Part shown: one piece after another, positions 1 through 10,502 of the stretch
Position numbering within the stretch: position 1 is the stretch's first letter
Layout of the letters: the number at the start of each line of letters is the position of its first letter
Origin: Tubiluchus corallicola
Taxonomy: Eukaryota; Animalia; Priapulida
Length of the DNA: 10,502 bases
Direction: 5' to 3'
Assembly: GCA_030141605.1 (NCBI GenBank)
Contig: JAQGDQ010000257.1
Location: 311,711-322,212 of the forward strand
Made by a program: the position numbers and the translations under genes
The notes under the pieces: generated by a model
The model's database searches: none
What the model was told of the DNA's origin: nothing
Seen by the model: only the letters and a program-made list of their open reading frames with translations

Positions 1-126
1 CCCTGTGAGTTGATAACTGAAGTCTGAGTGGCCAACGGTTAGCCTGCAAGTGTGGTCTCAACAGGTCACACCCTGCTCTTTTATACCCTCGTCCCGTGCC
101 TCTTTTGCTAACTCTCATCCTTGACA
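1..126 (-). mobile_element. Possible start of an LTR (truncated by window start)
   Basis: The minus strand begins TGTCA at 126, is more GC-rich than the flank and carries TATAAAA (79-85). No second LTR or target-site duplication is visible. Confidence 0.25.
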
Positions 127-1512
127 TATACCCTGGAACACTCAATAAACTCAAGGAGGCTTTTTGAGCTGCATTTTTGACGCGTCGTATACTATTTGTC
201 TCCAAGGACGAGACCATTAATTTGCCATTGCTTAAAACGTGGGTGACAGTTATACCGCTAGTCTACAACTCATCAATACAGAGTATATTCGTATTTACTG
301 CTATATTAGTTGCTTAAAAGTTGTTTTCTTTGGATTTTTTTGACTCGTTAAATGATTTTTAGTTGGCATCAGGCATATATACCCCGCCCACTCAAAATTA
401 TATTGACATTCTTTATTTTGCTAGTTAAGTAATCTGTTTATGGAGTTAGTTAAGAACTAACACAAAAAAAACCAAATTGACGTAAACGTTTAAAGCTATC
501 CTTATAAGAGGTTTTCCGTGAATTCTGTATCAACTGATTTCATCAATGACGTTACAGTAATAACAATGTAGTTATTTATATATGTCCTAAATATTATAAT
601 TTTTAGTACCATCTGTGATTTCAATTTAAGTAATTAATGCAGATTTGGTCCAGTCGATAAATGAGATACAAGAGATGTGTCATTGTTATTACAGCTGTAC
701 GTATTACAGTTATTGAGGTTGTAAGAGTGTAAAAATTATATTTGCTTAATTGCAACTTGCTGTTGTTTTGTAAAACTTAATCAGCGTCGGCGATAATTAA
801 ATTTGAAAATGTGTTAATTCGCTGCTGATATGCTTCTGTAAACGCGCGTTTTACTGCAGACAATCTTCACGCTGACAAAATTATGTCTACTGGCTGGCAT
901 TAACAACTTAAAATTCATGTACAAAAAATAACGAAAGCATCATTTTATGTGAGTTTTAATTTAATATCAAGCAAACTGAAGCTAACAGGACAAAAACGGT
1001 TTTGAAATTTTTCAAAATATAGGAATGCGTGCTCCATTGGTAACGAAGATATTATTGATTTTTAAAGTGTACAATGTAATCACTTCAAATTTTTACAATA
1101 GGAAAACTTTGTGGACCATCTGAGTCTATCGTGCAAAAACAGTTATACGCCCCGCTTGATTTTTTGCCGTTAGGAACAAATTATGCTAATAGCTGTAGCT
1201 TAATTAATTATCCATGCTTGCATGTCAACACGCTTGCTTTCATAAGTTTGATGGCAATGGATGGCATGACGCTTTGCAACCTCACTTTGTTATTTGTTAC
1301 TCGGTGTGATAATGAGCGTCATTCAGAGAGTGAAATAAAGAAAGTAAAACTATCTGCGTGTTCAAAAGATTTGCAGCTCTCAAAAGTTACGAATGCAACA
1401 ATGAATGATTTTACAAATAATGTGCTAACCACTTAGTGCAAAATGTTATTTTAGATGCAGTTTTAATGTATAATGCAATTTGTGATTTTAAACATTAATA
1501 CCATTTTAACAT

Positions 1513-3089: not shown

Positions 3090-3114
3090 TTTTGTGACTG
3101 TGCTATTGCCTAAA

Positions 3115-3697
3115 CTGTCCTCACAGTCTACCCTTACAGGCCTCACAGTCTGTCCTCACTGTCCTTGCAGTCCTCGCTGCCCTTAAAGTCTGTCCTGACT
3201 GTCCTCACTAGTCTATCCTCACAATCTGTACTTACAGTTCTCACAGTCCTCGCTGTCCTTCTAGTCTGTCCTCACAGTCTTCACAGTCCTCACAGTCTAT
3301 CCTCACAATCTGTACTTACAGTTCTCACAGTCCTCGCTGTCCTTCTAGTCTGTCCTCACAGTCTTCACTGTCCTCACAGTCTGTCCTGACTGTCCTCACT
3401 AGTCTATCCTCACAATCTGTACTTACAGTTCTCACAGTTCTCACTGCCCTCACAGTCTGTCCTCACAATCTGTACTTACAGTTCTCACAGTTCTCACTGT
3501 CCTCACAGTCTGTCCTCACTGTCCTCACAGTCTGTCCTCACAATCTGTACTTACAATTCTCACAGTTCTCACTGTCCTCATAGTCTGGCCTCACAGTCTG
3601 TCCTCACAATCTGTACTTACAGTTCTCACAGTTCTCACTGTCCTCACAGTCTGTCCTCACAATCTGTACTTACAGTTCTCACTGTTCTCACTGTCCT
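3115..3697. repeat. Complex minisatellite built from 9-bp (CTCACAGTY / CTCACTGTC) and 13-bp (CTCACAGTCTGTC / CTCACAATCTGTA) modules
   Basis: Marker AATCTGTACTTACA recurs at 3223, 3307, 3414, 3467, 3542, 3608 and 3661 (spacings 84,107,53,75,66,53). Confidence 0.95.
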
Positions 3698-4486
3698 GCT
3701 AAAGTAGTAGTCAATGAAATTTTGTCATAATTGTAAAGCTTAATAACTAAGCTCGGATTTCGCGTGTCCTCGTATGAAACAACACAGCCATAGCCCGATT
3801 CCATGATTCTAGGAGTAAAGAGAAAATTAGAAGTTTTAGCTTTCAGTTTATTACTTAAGCAGGGAAATTTTAAGGAATTTTCGTACAAAATTGGGCAGGC
3901 TCCTACTACATGAAACTGCTTATTAAGCCCTCAGTCTATACATCATTTTTTATTTGAATGTACATTAGTAAACCAAGCCAAAAGAAATGATTTTATTAGC
4001 ACTGTATATTCTCTAGCCGAGATAATAATGCTATAAATGCTTTTGCAAATCTTATCTCAGATGAATTCCCATCGTCTTTCGCCCGTATATAAACAGTCTG
4101 TTGGTGATGAAACGTTACAACTCTCGTCGTGTTTTCTATATGCTGTTTTGTTTTTATTTATGATTATGTGAATTTGCATTAGAATTGGTTATTATGTTTA
4201 TTATAATTGTACTCGCTGTTTCTCAGTGTGTGTGATGCGTATAGATATTTGTTACTATGTATTAAAATATGTTCGTTATCTTTTATTATGTATGAATGTT
4301 GTGATGGATTGTAATCTGTAACTATGTCTATTGTATATGGTCGTTGTCGTTCATTGTGTCTCATGCGTTAGATTCTAAATTATATATATATTGTGAATAG
4401 GTTTAATACGTTGTAAATGCTTTTAGAAATTTTAAACATATCCCACAAATAGAGGGAATGTATTCTGTACATAGTTTTTAAAAATA

Positions 4487-4687
<201 letters not shown>

Positions 4688-5365
4688 GTAGTAGTAAATT
4701 ATCTGACACTACGGAACCCCAGAACCACGTGTTACACCTCGTTTATAGGGTGATCGTGCCTGCCTTTCGTGACTTTGAGTATCAGAGTACGTTACCTATA
4801 AACACGGCGTCACAATGGTAAAATGAAACTGGTTGTCGTGGTCATGTTTACTATCAGGATTAGAGCGCATGTGATTAAAAATGCCTGTCAGCGTCACTGT
4901 CACTGTTATTTTCATAAATGTCGTCATCATAAATGTTAATTATCTTGTATCAAATTTACAAAACTCTTCGCCGACGATAGATCCAGTGTTTAAAAAACGG
5001 ACGTGAAATTTAAATTTATCATTATCACCATCATCAATGGAATTAAAATGAGACATTAGAAGTTTTGAAGGCAACGTTCGCAAACCCAGTCTTTGTGATG
5101 ACTACCGAGATTCGCGCAGTAGGACAAAGTCGAAGACGTACGTTTTTGGTGGACCTCTTACCTCAACAATCACAAAGAACACCACACTGATCCTGTAATG
5201 TTGTCATGGCAATTGTTAATGACATCGTCTATGTATCTCACCTAGGTTTTATACTTAATTACACGTTGTCAAGTGCGGTTTTTATGCATGGCAACTTCAG
5301 CATATTACCTCATACTCCACCTGCATTATTTAATTAAATTATGTACAATATGGACAGTTACATGT

Positions 5366-5554
<189 letters not shown>

Positions 5555-5653
5555 GTATACGTTGATAAGCAAGGGTTAAATATTTATTAAGAGATCGAAT
5601 TACAGCATCATATCAAACATTTGTAATATCATAGTGTCACAACAGTACAAACA

Positions 5654-5972
5654 ATGGCTTGGTCAAGATTTGACAGCAGGTTTCTTCTCACTGTAGGGTG
5701 TGTCTGGTTAAGTTTAGCCGTTGCTATTGTTGACATAAGTAATTTAAAAAAAGTGCTAATAGACAAAAATATGACAGGGTTTGTTCTTGAGACGAAAAAT
5801 GTTAGATCGTTAATGGGTTGTGTACGCTTGTGTGTAACACAGCCAGGATGTATTGGCCTCAGTGTAGGTCCAAGTGATGACAGTTTCTTATGTGACGTGT
5901 GCGGTCCTGAGGCAAATGGTTCAGCTAAAACTTTAATACCTGATTTTGATTTTTACATTGTAGATTTAACAG
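5654..5972 (+). CDS. Coding exon 1: signal peptide + PAN/apple-like domain
   Basis: ATG in context ACAAACA-ATG-G; basic N-terminus plus hydrophobic stretch FLLTVGCVWLSLAVA ending in A-x-A; motif RSLMGC-x3-C-x5-C...C (C56,C60,C66,C80) matches the PAN core spacing; strong donor CAG|GTGAGC (GT at 5973-5974), phase 1. Confidence 0.8.
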
Positions 5973-6444
5973 GTGAGCTCATCCATTTTTGTTCATCAAT
6001 ATAATATAATATAATATAATATAATATAATATAATATAATATAATATAATATAATATAATATAATATAATATAATATAATATAATATAATATAATATAAT
6101 ATAATATAATATAATATAATATAATATAATATAATATATTATATAATATAATATAATATAATATAATATAATATAATATAATATAATATAATATAATATA
6201 ATATAATATAATATAATATAATATAATATAATATAATATAATATAATATAATATAATATAATATAATATAATATAATATAATCTTGTATCGTTTGGAATG
6301 TTGAGTGCTGCACGTATAATTTTGTTGTGGTAAATGCAATCTTGTTGGCCTTAATGACAATAAAATTACTGCTGCTGCTGCTATGCTATTACCAACACCA
6401 CCACCACCACCACCACCACCACAACAACAACAACAACAACAACA

Positions 6445-6509
<65 letters not shown>

Positions 6510-9500
6510 GGTAAGCCAACAAAATTTCATGAAATTACAATAAATTACATTAAGTAACTGCATAAAAAAACACACAGATTCATAATGTACAAGCATCGGC
6601 AAATAATTAGATCACTTCAAAAATTGTATACTATTTTAAATAAGTATGCATTGATCTGTATTTTAAAAGCGTTAATGACCGAAAGTGTCCTGGTGTGGAT
6701 AGATAAACTGTTCCATTAAGCTGGTCCTACAATGGCGCACTCTAGGAACCGTAAGCAAAAGGTTATCTTTTGATCTCATACTATATCAGTTTAAATTTGT
6801 TGGACGAATCATGTCACAAATGTAATCGTGTGCCTCGCCATGAAGAGCCTTAAATACAAGTAGCACTAGCTTAAATGTATCCATAAATTAAACACATCTT
6901 AGCAGTCACCGTCCAAACAGTAAACACTTCATGCTTGATATTTTCGTCATGCCCAAAAAATGCAAAAGTTATAATTATATTAATATGATTGTACGCTTTT
7001 ATTGTATTGATGTGGTTGTGTTGTCAATAAAGCTGTTTATCAATTCAAGTTCTGAATGAAAAAGTAATTAAAGTATCAGGAAAACATAACGAACACATTT
7101 TTATAATGTAAGAAACAACAAAACTTAAAGACAAAGTGCATTTTTTTGTTTCTTCAGAAATTTGAGCTCTTTTTTTAAATCATGTTAAAATATTCAAATT
7201 TTGCTTTTTCTATTTAAAACTTGTTATTATTAACAATATATTCACCTATTTTCAAGACAAACATATTATTCCCACGCCAAGAGTAATAAATTTTCGTGAA
7301 CTTTTTTACTGGGACTAACTTCTTTCTAGTTCACCCGATAATCCTAGCATGGAGCATAAAGAAAACAGTTTTATAATATTTGTTATACTTGTAGAGGCCT
7401 ATGTATCTAATTCCATTTCTGGGTCCGACTAGTTTGACATACTCGCAAGAAATCTACGGTGGCGCTAAAGTGAACACAACGTTGTACCTAGAAGGCAGAG
7501 TGCTTGACAATCCAAACGGGTAGGCATCTGTATGTACCAAAATTACCTCAACGACTGACCAGTTATAATGATTGATAATTATTTGTGTTATAGTTTGAGG
7601 CCTACATAATATCACATAATTATATTTCCACACTATATTGTTATATAATATAACTTATATACGTGATCAACACACGTTTTAATAACTTTTGGTTCTTCTA
7701 ACAAAAATTTACAAGTTATAAATTTTATATTTATAATCTAGTATGTTTGAAATTATTTAACCAATAAAAATTGGTAGATAGTCAGTTACAAGAAACAGCG
7801 CTTTTGGCATATTCTTTTGCATATCAAAGGGAAAGGCAAAGCCTTCCGGGATAGGTTTATTACAATGTTCGGGGGAAAATGTTAGAACGATTTAGGAATA
7901 ACAGTGTGAGGAGAATCCCATGTGATTAGTAAAAACACTTTAAAATTGTGACGTTTCACGCTAATGTCGTCATCCATGGAGTGAAGAACAGCAGGATAAT
8001 GCAAATTTCCGTAAAAAGTAAAATAAGTTTTTACAAGAAATTAGCTAATTTTGTGACGTTTCTGCAAGAACATTAGGTAAGCTGCAGAAGTTTGAATTAG
8101 TTTAGGTAGCACGCGCTTACAGAAAGCCACGATGCGCTTACGGAAAGTCACGAAGTTCACCTGTTACATCGTAATTTTCAGCAGACAGCTGCCATTCACT
8201 TGAAAATTTCTGTTCAGCGTTAGTAGTACAAATTAACTTTATGCTTTATAGCAGTTTTTGTTCAAGTTTCTTTGTTATACTTTTCTAAGTTTAAGTGATA
8301 ACAGCAATACAAACACAACATGCTAACTGATGTGTCCTTTCTTTTAATAAAAGTTGTAGGAAGAGGCACAATGATGCGACACATTTTTGGTATTAATTGC
8401 GGGCACATATTTTGTTATGCTTTGTTAATTGGCACACACTATTCGGTAGTGGGAAATCTTTCTCTGAAAAATAAACAAAAAATGCCTTTTGTTCAGTACT
8501 GAGACACTTTAGTATTGCAAGCGCTCTTACGAAAGCTACGATGCGCTTACGAAAAGTCACAAAGTTCACTTGTTACGTCATAATTTTCAAGTGAATGGCA
8601 GTAACCACCACAACTGAAAAATTCTACACAGTGGCGTTAATAAATTTACTTATTAAATTTACAGACAGTTTCTTTATGTAAATTTTTTTGCTATATTTTC
8701 TAAGTGATAACAGTAAAATAAAATTAAAATAAAACATGGTAAGTAACTTGTCCTTTCTTTTAGTAATACGCCATTCCACATAAAAACCGAAAATCTTCCA
8801 TCTATGCGAAGTATAGCTAGAAGCAGTGTGGCAAGTGACATACGATTACTGAACTTAGTGGTTACCAACCCATCTACTCACTATGTTTGGCGTTTCATAA
8901 GTGGTTTCTAAGCACACAGTACCCAATTTTGCTCGTTACGGCATATTGTACGAACCAGATTTTACATAATGGCTTTATTCTTTTAGAATCGCCATTCGTG
9001 TTAGAATTGTCAAATCTGTTACCGACATTGCATTAAAAATCGATTCTAACTTCGAGACGAACCAAACAATATTGAAAAGCAGACTGAACGGAAACTGGGG
9101 TCCTGAGGAGATGGCAGCCCTTGCACTTGAAGCAGGACAAGAATTTTCCATGGCAATCGACATGCTGGAAGACAAGTACGTCACACATGAGTTAACAATT
9201 AGAAGTTTTGTTCTTTATCTTAGGAAATGTTTACACGCACGCTGCTTAAATGGGATATGTAGATTGTTTTTAACGCATAACCGATCTAAAGTTTATAATC
9301 AATTTGGAACGATGTTTTTTTAAATATACCCTGAACAAGGCATTAGACTTCGAAAAATTACTGATGTGTAATTTAAGAACAAATGTTTTGGAGTGTTAGA
9401 TGGCAACAAGTAAACAAAAAAATCAGCTGCATAAAGTGCTCTACTTATGCCGAAATATGTGTCTAATGAGATGTTACAGTGGGTATAAGTCACAGTTGCA

Positions 9501-9768
9501 GTACGCCAGTCCCCACAGGTTGTGAGCCAAAGTACTTTCGTCAATTTTGTCAACAGCAGTGGCATTACATAAGAGTATTTGCAAATACTAATGAATGCGT
9601 AACTTTAATGATAATTTTTTTGTCTGTTTCAGGTTTTCAGTCAGTGTTAATGGAAACCACTTTGTAGATTACCAGTACCGTTACACTCCTATTTCTGACA
9701 TAAATTCGATAACAGTGAACGGCGATATGGAACTTCAGAAGTACATCCAATATGGTACACCTGTGTAA
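5654..9768 (+). CDS. Five-exon gene for a predicted secreted PAN/apple-galectin chimeric protein (264 aa); join(5654..5972,7257..7282,7395..7519,8987..9175,9633..9768)
   Basis: Manual splicing: four GT-AG introns, phases 1,0,2,2; exons 319+26+125+189+136=795 nt with no internal stop. Protein: MAWSRFDSRFLLTVGCVWLSLAVAIVDISNLKKVLIDKNMTGFVLETKNVRSLMGCVRLCVTQPGCIGLSVGPSDDSFLCDVCGPEANGSAKTLIPDFDFYIVDLT-DKHIIPTPR-RPMYLIPFLGPTSLTYSQEIYGGAKVNTTLYLEGRVLDNPN-GIAIRVRIVKSVTDIALKIDSNFETNQTILKSRLNGNWGPEEMAALALEAGQEFSMAIDMLED-KFSVSVNGNHFVDYQYRYTPISDINSITVNGDMELQKYIQYGTPV*. The link between exon 1 and the galectin exons depends on the 26-nt microexon. Confidence 0.75.
5998..6282. repeat. (ATAAT)n pentanucleotide microsatellite in intron 1
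   Basis: Directly visible, one interruption near 6136-6141; starts 25 nt after the exon 1 donor. Confidence 0.98.
6368..6510. repeat. Compound trinucleotide microsatellite (CTG)n...(ACC)8(ACA)8(ACT)21 ACG in intron 1
   Basis: Directly visible stepwise change of unit in a single register from 6391. Confidence 0.97.
7257..7282 (+). CDS. Coding exon 2: 26-nt linker microexon (DKHIIPTPR)
   Basis: Acceptor ttcacctattttcaag| and donor AGA|GTAATA; converts phase 1 (exon 1 end) to phase 0 (exon 3 start) and encodes a Pro-containing linker. The donor is only moderate. Confidence 0.55.
7395..7519 (+). CDS. Coding exon 3: N-terminal part of the galectin-fold domain
   Basis: Acceptor ttgttatacttgtag|, donor GG|GTAGGC (phase 2); YSQEIYGGAKVNTTLYLEGRVLDNPN resembles the galectin start pattern Y...I.GGL..G..I.I.G.V......F. 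Confidence 0.8.
8101..8350 (+). repeat. Diverged ~250-bp direct repeat, copy 1 (intron 3)
   Basis: Collinear shared blocks with 8508-8766: ACGATGCGCTTACG-AAAGTCAC-AAGTTCAC-TGTTAC, TAATTTTCA, TTTTCTAAG/TAAGTGATAACAG, AACATG-TAA, TGTCCTTTCTTTTA. Confidence 0.85.
8508..8766 (+). repeat. Diverged ~250-bp direct repeat, copy 2 (intron 3)
   Basis: Same blocks as copy 1, offset about 410 bp. Confidence 0.85.
8987..9175 (+). CDS. Coding exon 4: central Trp-containing exon of the galectin-fold domain
   Basis: Acceptor ctttattcttttag|, donor AA|GTACGT (phase 2-2); contains DIAL, NGNWGPEE and GQEFSMAI, matching the galectin DIAL / G.WG.EE / G..F.I.I motifs. Confidence 0.88.
9633..9768 (+). CDS. Coding exon 5: C-terminal part of the galectin-fold domain, TAA at 9766-9768
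   Basis: Strong acceptor ttttttgtctgtttcag|; FSVSVNGNHFVDYQYR...INSITVNGDMELQ matches galectin F.V.VNG.H...F.HR...I..I.I.GD..L. Confidence 0.88.
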
Positions 9769-10502
9769 GAGAGAAAAACATTCATACGTACATCCAATAT
9801 GGTACACCTGTGTAAGAGAGAAAAACATTCATACGTACATCCAATATGGTCCACGTGTGTAAGAGAGAAAGACATTCATACATACATCCAATATGGTCCA
9901 CCTGTGTAAGAGAGAAAGGCATTCATACATACATTCAATATGGTCCACCTGTGTAAGAGAGAAAAACATTCATAGGTACATTCAATATGGCCCACCTGTG
10001 TAAGGGAGAAAAACATTCACATGTACATCCAATGTGGTCCACCTGTGTAAGAGAGAAAGACATTCATACGTGCATCCAATATGGCCCACCTGTGTAAGAG
10101 AAAAGTCATTCATACGTACATCCAATATGGTCCACCTGTGTAACAGAGAAAAACATTCATACGTACATTCAATATGGTACACCTGTGTAACAGAGAAAAA
10201 CATTCATATGTACATCCAATGTGGTCCACCTGTGTAAGAGAGAAAGACATTCATACGTACATCCAATATGGTCCACCTGTGTAACAGAGAAAAACATTCA
10301 TACGTGCATCCAATATGGCCCACCCGTGTAAGAGAAAAAACATTCATAGGTACATCCAATATGGCCCACCTGTGTAATAGAGAAAAACATTCATAGGTAC
10401 ATTCAATATGGTCCACCTGTGTAAGAGAGAATAACATTCATAGGTACATTCAATATGGTCCACCTGTGTAAGAGAGAAAAACATCCATACGTACATCCAA
10501 TA
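9741..10502 (+). repeat. 47-bp minisatellite, 16 full units plus a partial one, truncated by the window end
   Basis: Unit GTACATCCAATATGGTMCACCTGTGTAAGAGAGAAAAACATTCATAC starting at 9741, 9788, 9835, 9882, 9929, 9976, 10023, 10070, 10116, 10163, 10210, 10257, 10304, 10350, 10397, 10444, 10491; two units are 46 bp. Confidence 0.98.

Follow-up and report, generated by a model that had tools for sequence, protein, structure and literature searches.

We describe a 10,502-nt stretch of the 345-Mb Tubiluchus corallicola genome (hereafter the window), the end of contig C1902, which carries one copy of a gene family joining a predicted signal peptide, a PAN/apple-like module, a linker and a galectin domain. 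The account that we consider reasonably probable is that this family is lineage-restricted, that the window copy is probably a recently broken member, and that the intact members are likely to be diversifying secreted recognition proteins. The original prediction, made from the letters of the window, had proposed a spliced five-exon gene for a secreted PAN-galectin chimera. Its five segments do join into a stop-free open reading frame of 264 amino acids with AG/GT ends and phases 1/0/2/2, and the model contains four N-glycosylation sequons as described (residues 39, 88, 142 and 182), with Cys at residues 16, 56, 60, 66, 80 and 83. Exons 1, 3, 4 and 5 of the window copy are far beyond chance, because four intact paralogues repeat their order and splice phases; the second exon of the model did not hold. 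The parts of the window copy are as follows.

5654..5972, + strand: exon 1, with a predicted signal peptide (residues ~1-24) and a PAN/apple-like module, ending at a phase-1 GT donor
7257..7282, + strand: 26-nt micro-exon of the original prediction, most likely intronic sequence
7395..7519, + strand: exon 3 (phase 0 to 2), opening the galectin domain, sequon at residue 142
8987..9175, + strand: exon 4, galectin strands with degenerate sugar-site motifs and an excess of replacement changes
9633..9768, + strand: exon 5, closing the galectin domain, with the stop codon

A PAN exon shared by two kinds of lectin genes

A profile of exon 1 gave 33 matches in the genome (46 candidates scored), which is a lower bound. 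Downstream of these PAN exons, 22 have a single C-type lectin exon and nine have galectin-type exons, with two orphans. The search for paralogues thus yielded nine galectin-type copies, counting the window (the others are C361, C2157b, C162a, C162b, C2117, C1619, C1651 and C944b). Four of them (C361, C2157b, C162b and C2117) give intact, stop-free models of 269-277 amino acids with 2-4 sequons, in the layout signal-PAN-linker-galectin, linker exon included. The claimed family of modular secreted proteins therefore exists as a signal-PAN-galectin gene family, but the window does not hold an intact 264-residue member of it. The PAN exons examined, two truncated copies apart, have their phase-1 donor at one common place, and the exon 1 donor of the window matches this position except for a 9-nt extension common to the window and C361. 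The N-terminus encoded by exon 1 is hydrophobic, alike across aligned paralogues (peak mean hydropathy 2.65), and the signal peptide was called from hydropathy only. We regard it as highly probable that the exons of the intact paralogues are spliced into one mRNA; contigs of RNA run X1 cover neither the exons in window 6520-9730 nor one paralogue's exon 1-2 stretch, which is uninformative on expression.

There is good support for the proposed exon shuffling at the phase-1 intron, since this exon stands first in 22 C-type lectin genes and the copies linked to galectins are nested among these: in a PAN tree of 23 rows, the six galectin-linked exons included cluster together (92/89; 94% of bootstraps) inside the C-type-lectin-linked exons. 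Use of the phase-1 PAN donor is further supported by an intron-less public protein from Logan (P0032), identical at 141 of 214 positions to the PAN + C-type lectin model on C2280, since it reads uninterrupted across the junction. The galectin domains of the family cluster with the canonical C1624a1 and C496 domains (96/96). In the simplest history, a galectin unit would have taken the place of a C-type lectin exon at the phase-1 intron. An older two-exon signal-PAN + C-type lectin family would then be the source of the first exon, which would have joined, via its phase-1 intron, a galectin unit starting with a phase-1 linker exon and apparently kin to the canonical C1624 and C496 galectins. 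Duplication of the hybrid would have followed.

The two-exon PAN + C-type lectin family has no fewer than 22 copies, some in tandem arrays (on C558, C1597 and C708) and others on C2344, C797, C1872, C1491, C2005, C2315, C1584, C2280, C2531, C46, C683 and C1278. Two C1597 copies contain an in-frame stop inside the PAN exon. Among the galectin-type loci, the PAN exon of C944b (C944:111623-114736) is frameshifted, the linker exon is truncated and exons 4-5 are absent within ~17 kb at C1619:382615-384750 and C1651:4660-6796, and exons 2-3 were not found at C162a (C162:32119-36538). The canonical locus C1624:610500-619700 (L035, L057) holds two galectin domains in tandem on one strand and is probably a tandem-repeat galectin; neither its first exon nor the linker between the domains was found, and there is no PAN exon within ~42 kb upstream of C1624a. 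A possible phase-1 donor ending the first C1624 domain aligns with the position of the stop codon in PAN-galectin genes, a hint that this stop codon arose at an old donor.

The window copy lacks the linker exon

Comparison of first introns brought to light a conserved linker exon, the true exon 2 of the family, which is 56-62 nt long (3n+2), runs from phase 1 to 0 and ends at a GTAAGT donor. It is present at seven loci (C361, C2157 twice, C162b, C2117, C944b and the canonical C1624 galectin) and in shortened form at two more (C1619 and C1651). A search with nhmmer --max found no trace of it in the window or in the 10 kb upstream, and no second near-identical copy of the missing exon occurs elsewhere in the assembly. 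The position of the loss is given by the sister copy C361.

6303..6333 (approximate), + strand: junction of the missing ~1.1 kb; C361 retains the stretch, including true exon 2
4086..10502, + strand: segment common to the window and C361, in blocks ~82-93% identical

The possibility that C361 is an allele of the window was rejected: the next 30 kb upstream are not collinear, so that C361 is a gene duplicate.

The 26-nt micro-exon used in the 264-residue model is one of 27 stop-free AG..GT candidates in this intron that would restore the frame. Ranked by a crude score, it comes fifth (6.2), whereas true exon 2 scores 14.6-16.5 in five paralogues and is the best-scoring candidate in all five scored loci that contain it. 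Its donor has T at +5, which is seen in 0 of 31 family donors, and its acceptor AAG is found in 1 of 36 family acceptors. Nor is the stretch conserved beyond its surroundings (1 mismatch in 26 positions vs 37 in 729 of the surrounding intron); its counterpart in C2157 is 27 nt long with GA where GT is expected, and C361 has both the micro-exon stretch and true exon 2, the use of both of which would break the frame. With atypical splice sites, 26 competing frame-fixers and no GT in C2157, the 264-residue model is not upheld, and neither is the intact gene that it implied: the linker exon is absent here and a direct join of exon 1 to exon 3 shifts the frame, giving a 118-residue PAN-only product with a premature stop in exon 3. 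For this reason the window copy is probably a recently broken family member. No frame-breaking indels occur in 769 coding nt, compared with ~3.6 expected on one branch (P 0.027), and since the remaining exons have thus stayed in frame, loss of the linker should be recent, allelic or an assembly error. In this case, a phase-consistent micro-exon chosen by eye concealed a missing exon.

The first exon encodes a PAN-like module

The cysteine pattern read in exon 1 (C-x3-C-x5-C ... C) is present, and C56, C60, C66 and C80 are invariant in all 13 aligned exons. In a Pfam scan of the window exons taken singly, exons 1 and 3 match no family, but 5 of the 13 aligned paralogue exons match PAN_1 (best E 1.8e-4), the window exon not being among them. 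The ESM atlas places the window exon with PAN_1 clusters at scores of 0.95, 0.94 and 0.93. An AlphaFold2 model of exon 1 is of moderate confidence (predicted local distance difference test score 61), and Foldseek ranks MANEC, factor XI/prekallikrein apple and HGF/PAN structures near the top, none with E<=0.001. Most of the 77 public PAN-profile matches scanned with Pfam are PAN proteins. Across Pfam, atlas and fold comparisons, the exon resembles PAN_1/PAN_4, and Ig families are absent from its matches. The identity of exon 1 as a PAN module is very likely, given the atlas score of 0.95, the PAN_1 matches of its paralogues and the mostly PAN membership of its profile matches; of the earlier claim, the cysteine pattern and family-level evidence stand, while the window exon itself has no Pfam match and a weak fold match.

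A degenerate sugar site in a rapidly changing galectin exon

Exons 4 and 5 each match PF00337 on their own, above the Pfam cut-off (E 1.5e-8 and 2e-7), and the solved structures nearest by sequence are galectin-9, nematode galectins and galectin-5. The galectin fold thus stands, with the reservation that its sugar site is degenerate. In galectin-1 numbering, the window copy retains W and E of the seven canonical residues, whereas H, N, R, N and R are replaced. Across eight family domains, 2-6 of the seven are kept, compared with 7/7 in C1624a1, C1624a2 and C496. The reference was the set of beta-galactoside motifs HFNPRF, V-x-N and WGxExR (PMC13084444).

Between the window and C361, 32 of the 189 bases of exon 4 differ, while the flanking introns differ by ~8%. 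Replacement differences per site (pN 0.199) exceed silent ones (pS 0.075) and those of the flanking introns (0.079; Fisher p 1e-4), and an excess over introns is found in three of four paralogue pairs. On the window branch, exon 4 accumulated 14 replacement and 0 silent changes, compared with changes at 41 of 1010 intron sites (p 0.006). This excess may reflect diversification of the binding face. Gene conversion as the source of the exon-4 divergence is unlikely, because silent divergence equals intron divergence.

Repeats in and around the locus

The window ends in the following array, which reaches the contig end.

9734..10502, + strand: 47-nt minisatellite, 16.4 copies, whose first unit comprises the last coding bases, the stop codon and the 3' flank of exon 5

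Related arrays of differing length lie behind exon 5 in C361, C2157, C162, C944 and C2117. Intron 3 contains a dispersed repeat in two related copies (window ~7980-8345 and ~8520-8790), which occurs in either orientation in paralogue introns and has partial matches to run X1 contigs. Tandem repeats at window 3114-3695, 4487-4685, 5369-5547, 5998-6282 and 6391-6509 include a 22/53/75-nt CTCACAGT-type array and AAT, AC, AATAT and ACC/ACA/ACT runs. By eye, window 1-150 resembles the end of a long terminal repeat-type element (TATA-like TTTTATA, AATAAA and terminal TCA-like motifs).

Relation to known lectins

The closest published parallel is provided by the VIgL proteins of snails, in which one module stands ahead of a fibrinogen, a C-type lectin or a galectin domain (PMC5433772, PMC9334734). 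Like the PAN family, the GREPs, CREPs and FREPs of Biomphalaria and other gastropods thus place a shared N-terminal module before different lectin domains (PMC5433772, PMC9334734), and GREPs share with the PAN-galectin family a C-terminal galectin domain whose sugar-pocket residues are non-canonical (PMC5433772). The parallel with CREPs and GREPs is closer than the original prediction had it, because one PAN exon serves both lectin types. In GREPs, however, the N-terminal module is IgSF, in place of which the family has a PAN-like module, and the window gene is therefore not a GREP; unlike GREPs, the family is made up of several diverging galectin copies known from genes alone. In contrast to FREPs, the partners found for the PAN exon are C-type lectin and galectin only, with no fibrinogen. 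A gastropod setting is not supported: searches of the genome for molluscan haemocyanin and for hemerythrin gave no match, which are weak and uninformative negatives.

A PAN-then-lectin layout is also found in PAN/apple + C-type lectin gene models 41 and 42 of Biomphalaria LG11L (PMC13712769), in the nematode CW+CTLD class (PMC5297725) and in Lingula XP_013414542.1 (P0095), whose PAN + C-type lectin layout is that of 22 genes in this genome. The window subfamily differs from all of these in that a four-exon galectin unit replaces the C-type lectin exon. Classical galectins (prototype, tandem-repeat and chimera galectin-3) share the PF00337 domain and are typically, though not universally, made in the cytosol with no signal peptide, but the window copy has a predicted signal peptide, sequons and only 2 of 7 canonical residues, and in place of the proline-rich tail it has a disulphide-type PAN module. 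Loss of galactose-binding residues in galectin-related proteins recalls the window copy (PMC10343441). Galectins with signal peptides are described from the sponges Geodia, Chondrilla australiensis and Amphimedon (PMC13084444, PMC10343441); these are classically secreted galectin domains too, but single-domain and with no PAN module.

We found no description of the combination itself, in searches of public proteins that are weak evidence of absence. Exon 1 gave no homologues among 96 candidates from longer public proteins, and the exon-5 alignment none among 1048. Exon 4 of a canonical paralogue recovered 19 of 27 candidates, PF00337 being the sole annotation of each. A PAN profile gave 106 public representatives, in 77 of which a Pfam scan found no PF00337, and against all 106 the best galectin exon profile match had E 0.26. 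No single-chain PAN+galectin animal protein appeared in the literature searched, which covered few subscription journals, and no passage on galectins was found in PMC9835746. It is likely, but not proven, that the PAN+galectin architecture is undescribed so far. The domain architecture is real and apparently undescribed, and it belongs to a small, fast-evolving, lineage-restricted family of modular secreted lectins.

Proposed mechanism and alternatives

We propose that intact members would pass through the endoplasmic reticulum, be N-glycosylated and be secreted. The galectin face would have lost beta-galactoside residues to copy-specific degrees and been pushed toward new specificities, on which grounds we suggest that its ligands would be variable, either foreign or surface molecules. 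A constant docking or oligomerising role would fall to the conserved PAN module, common to the C-type lectin members, and the window copy would have a null or PAN-only output. This mechanism as a whole seems to us somewhat better than an even prospect, and an immune role of the family, argued by analogy, is moderately favoured. A further step, to which we give slightly less than even credence, would make the family an independently evolved VIgL counterpart, in which two secreted lectin families share a signal+PAN cassette and the galectin branch is positively selected, non-galactoside and immune.

Several results weigh against this account. The window PAN exon has no match in Pfam and weak ones among known folds (best E 0.03), the signal peptide is inferred from hydropathy only, and zero junctions are shown by transcript for any PAN-galectin gene. 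The galectin clade is missing from a smaller PAN tree of 17 rows (2 changes; 8% of bootstraps), and both PAN trees are midpoint-rooted and carry long-branch warnings. As the exon preceding the linker in C1624a was not found, a secreted ancestor is possible. With regard to selection, the C162a/C162b pair has no replacement excess over introns (p 0.33), dN/dS of exon 4 falls short of significance when the silent sites of that exon are the reference (w 2.9, p 0.096), and the significance obtained uses introns as the neutral yardstick for pairs that share members and are not independent; the degenerate sites might also mean that sugar binding has been lost. The ~1.1-kb deletion is read from the assembly, by comparison with C361. 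Finally, the immune role leans on analogy.

Whether the window copy is genuinely broken can be weighed against two alternatives. It is improbable, in our estimation, that the gene is intact in the species and that the linker exon is absent through faulty assembly or through a deletion allele carried by the individual sequenced. Such an explanation would suit the open frames of all four exons that remain, their conserved splice sites and recent replacement excess, and the location of the gap between long microsatellites ~4 kb from the contig end. However, the breakpoints seem to lie in short unique sequence between the arrays (by weak alignments), there is no spare near-identical linker exon in the assembly, and damaged copies are common in the family (the C944b frameshift, the truncated linkers of C1619 and C1651, C162a without exons 2-3). 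Distinctly more improbable is a functional window copy in which the micro-exon, or another cryptic site, substitutes for the lost linker and restores the frame. Although the clean 264-residue reading frame and exons that remained open and changed under apparent selection would be expected of it, the micro-exon is only one of the frame-fixers, has atypical splice sites, is conserved no better than intron, breaks the frame in C361 if used after true exon 2 and lacks a GT in C2157.

As for the architecture, the absence of a transcript joining PAN and galectin exons, and the occurrence of some PAN exons without galectin exons nearby, could mean that the two are separate, co-duplicated transcription units. 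This is highly improbable: 22 of the 24 galectin-less PAN exons have a C-type lectin exon and none was seen behind the galectin-linked ones, the linker has a phase-1 acceptor that fits the PAN donor and a separate start codon was not identified for it, and order and phase are kept among paralogues at a silent divergence (dS) of ~0.4 or more. Rather unlikely, if far from negligible, is that the architecture is right and the role non-immune, in gamete recognition, mucus, or adhesive or skeletal matrix, for secretion and rapid change of a binding face fit reproductive and matrix proteins as well. Birth-and-death duplication, common to the C-type lectin family, and the precedent of snail plasma GREPs and CREPs (PMC5433772) favour non-self recognition instead.

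Provided that the intact paralogues are expressed in the modelled form, they would represent a second, convergent case in animals of a galectin placed behind a shared secreted module. The steps appear legible in one genome, from the PAN + C-type lectin donor and the canonical galectins to the hybrid clade, the graded loss of the galactose site and the accelerated binding exon. Should the modelled expression prove true, the question of how a secreted galectin fold gains new ligands would become directly testable.

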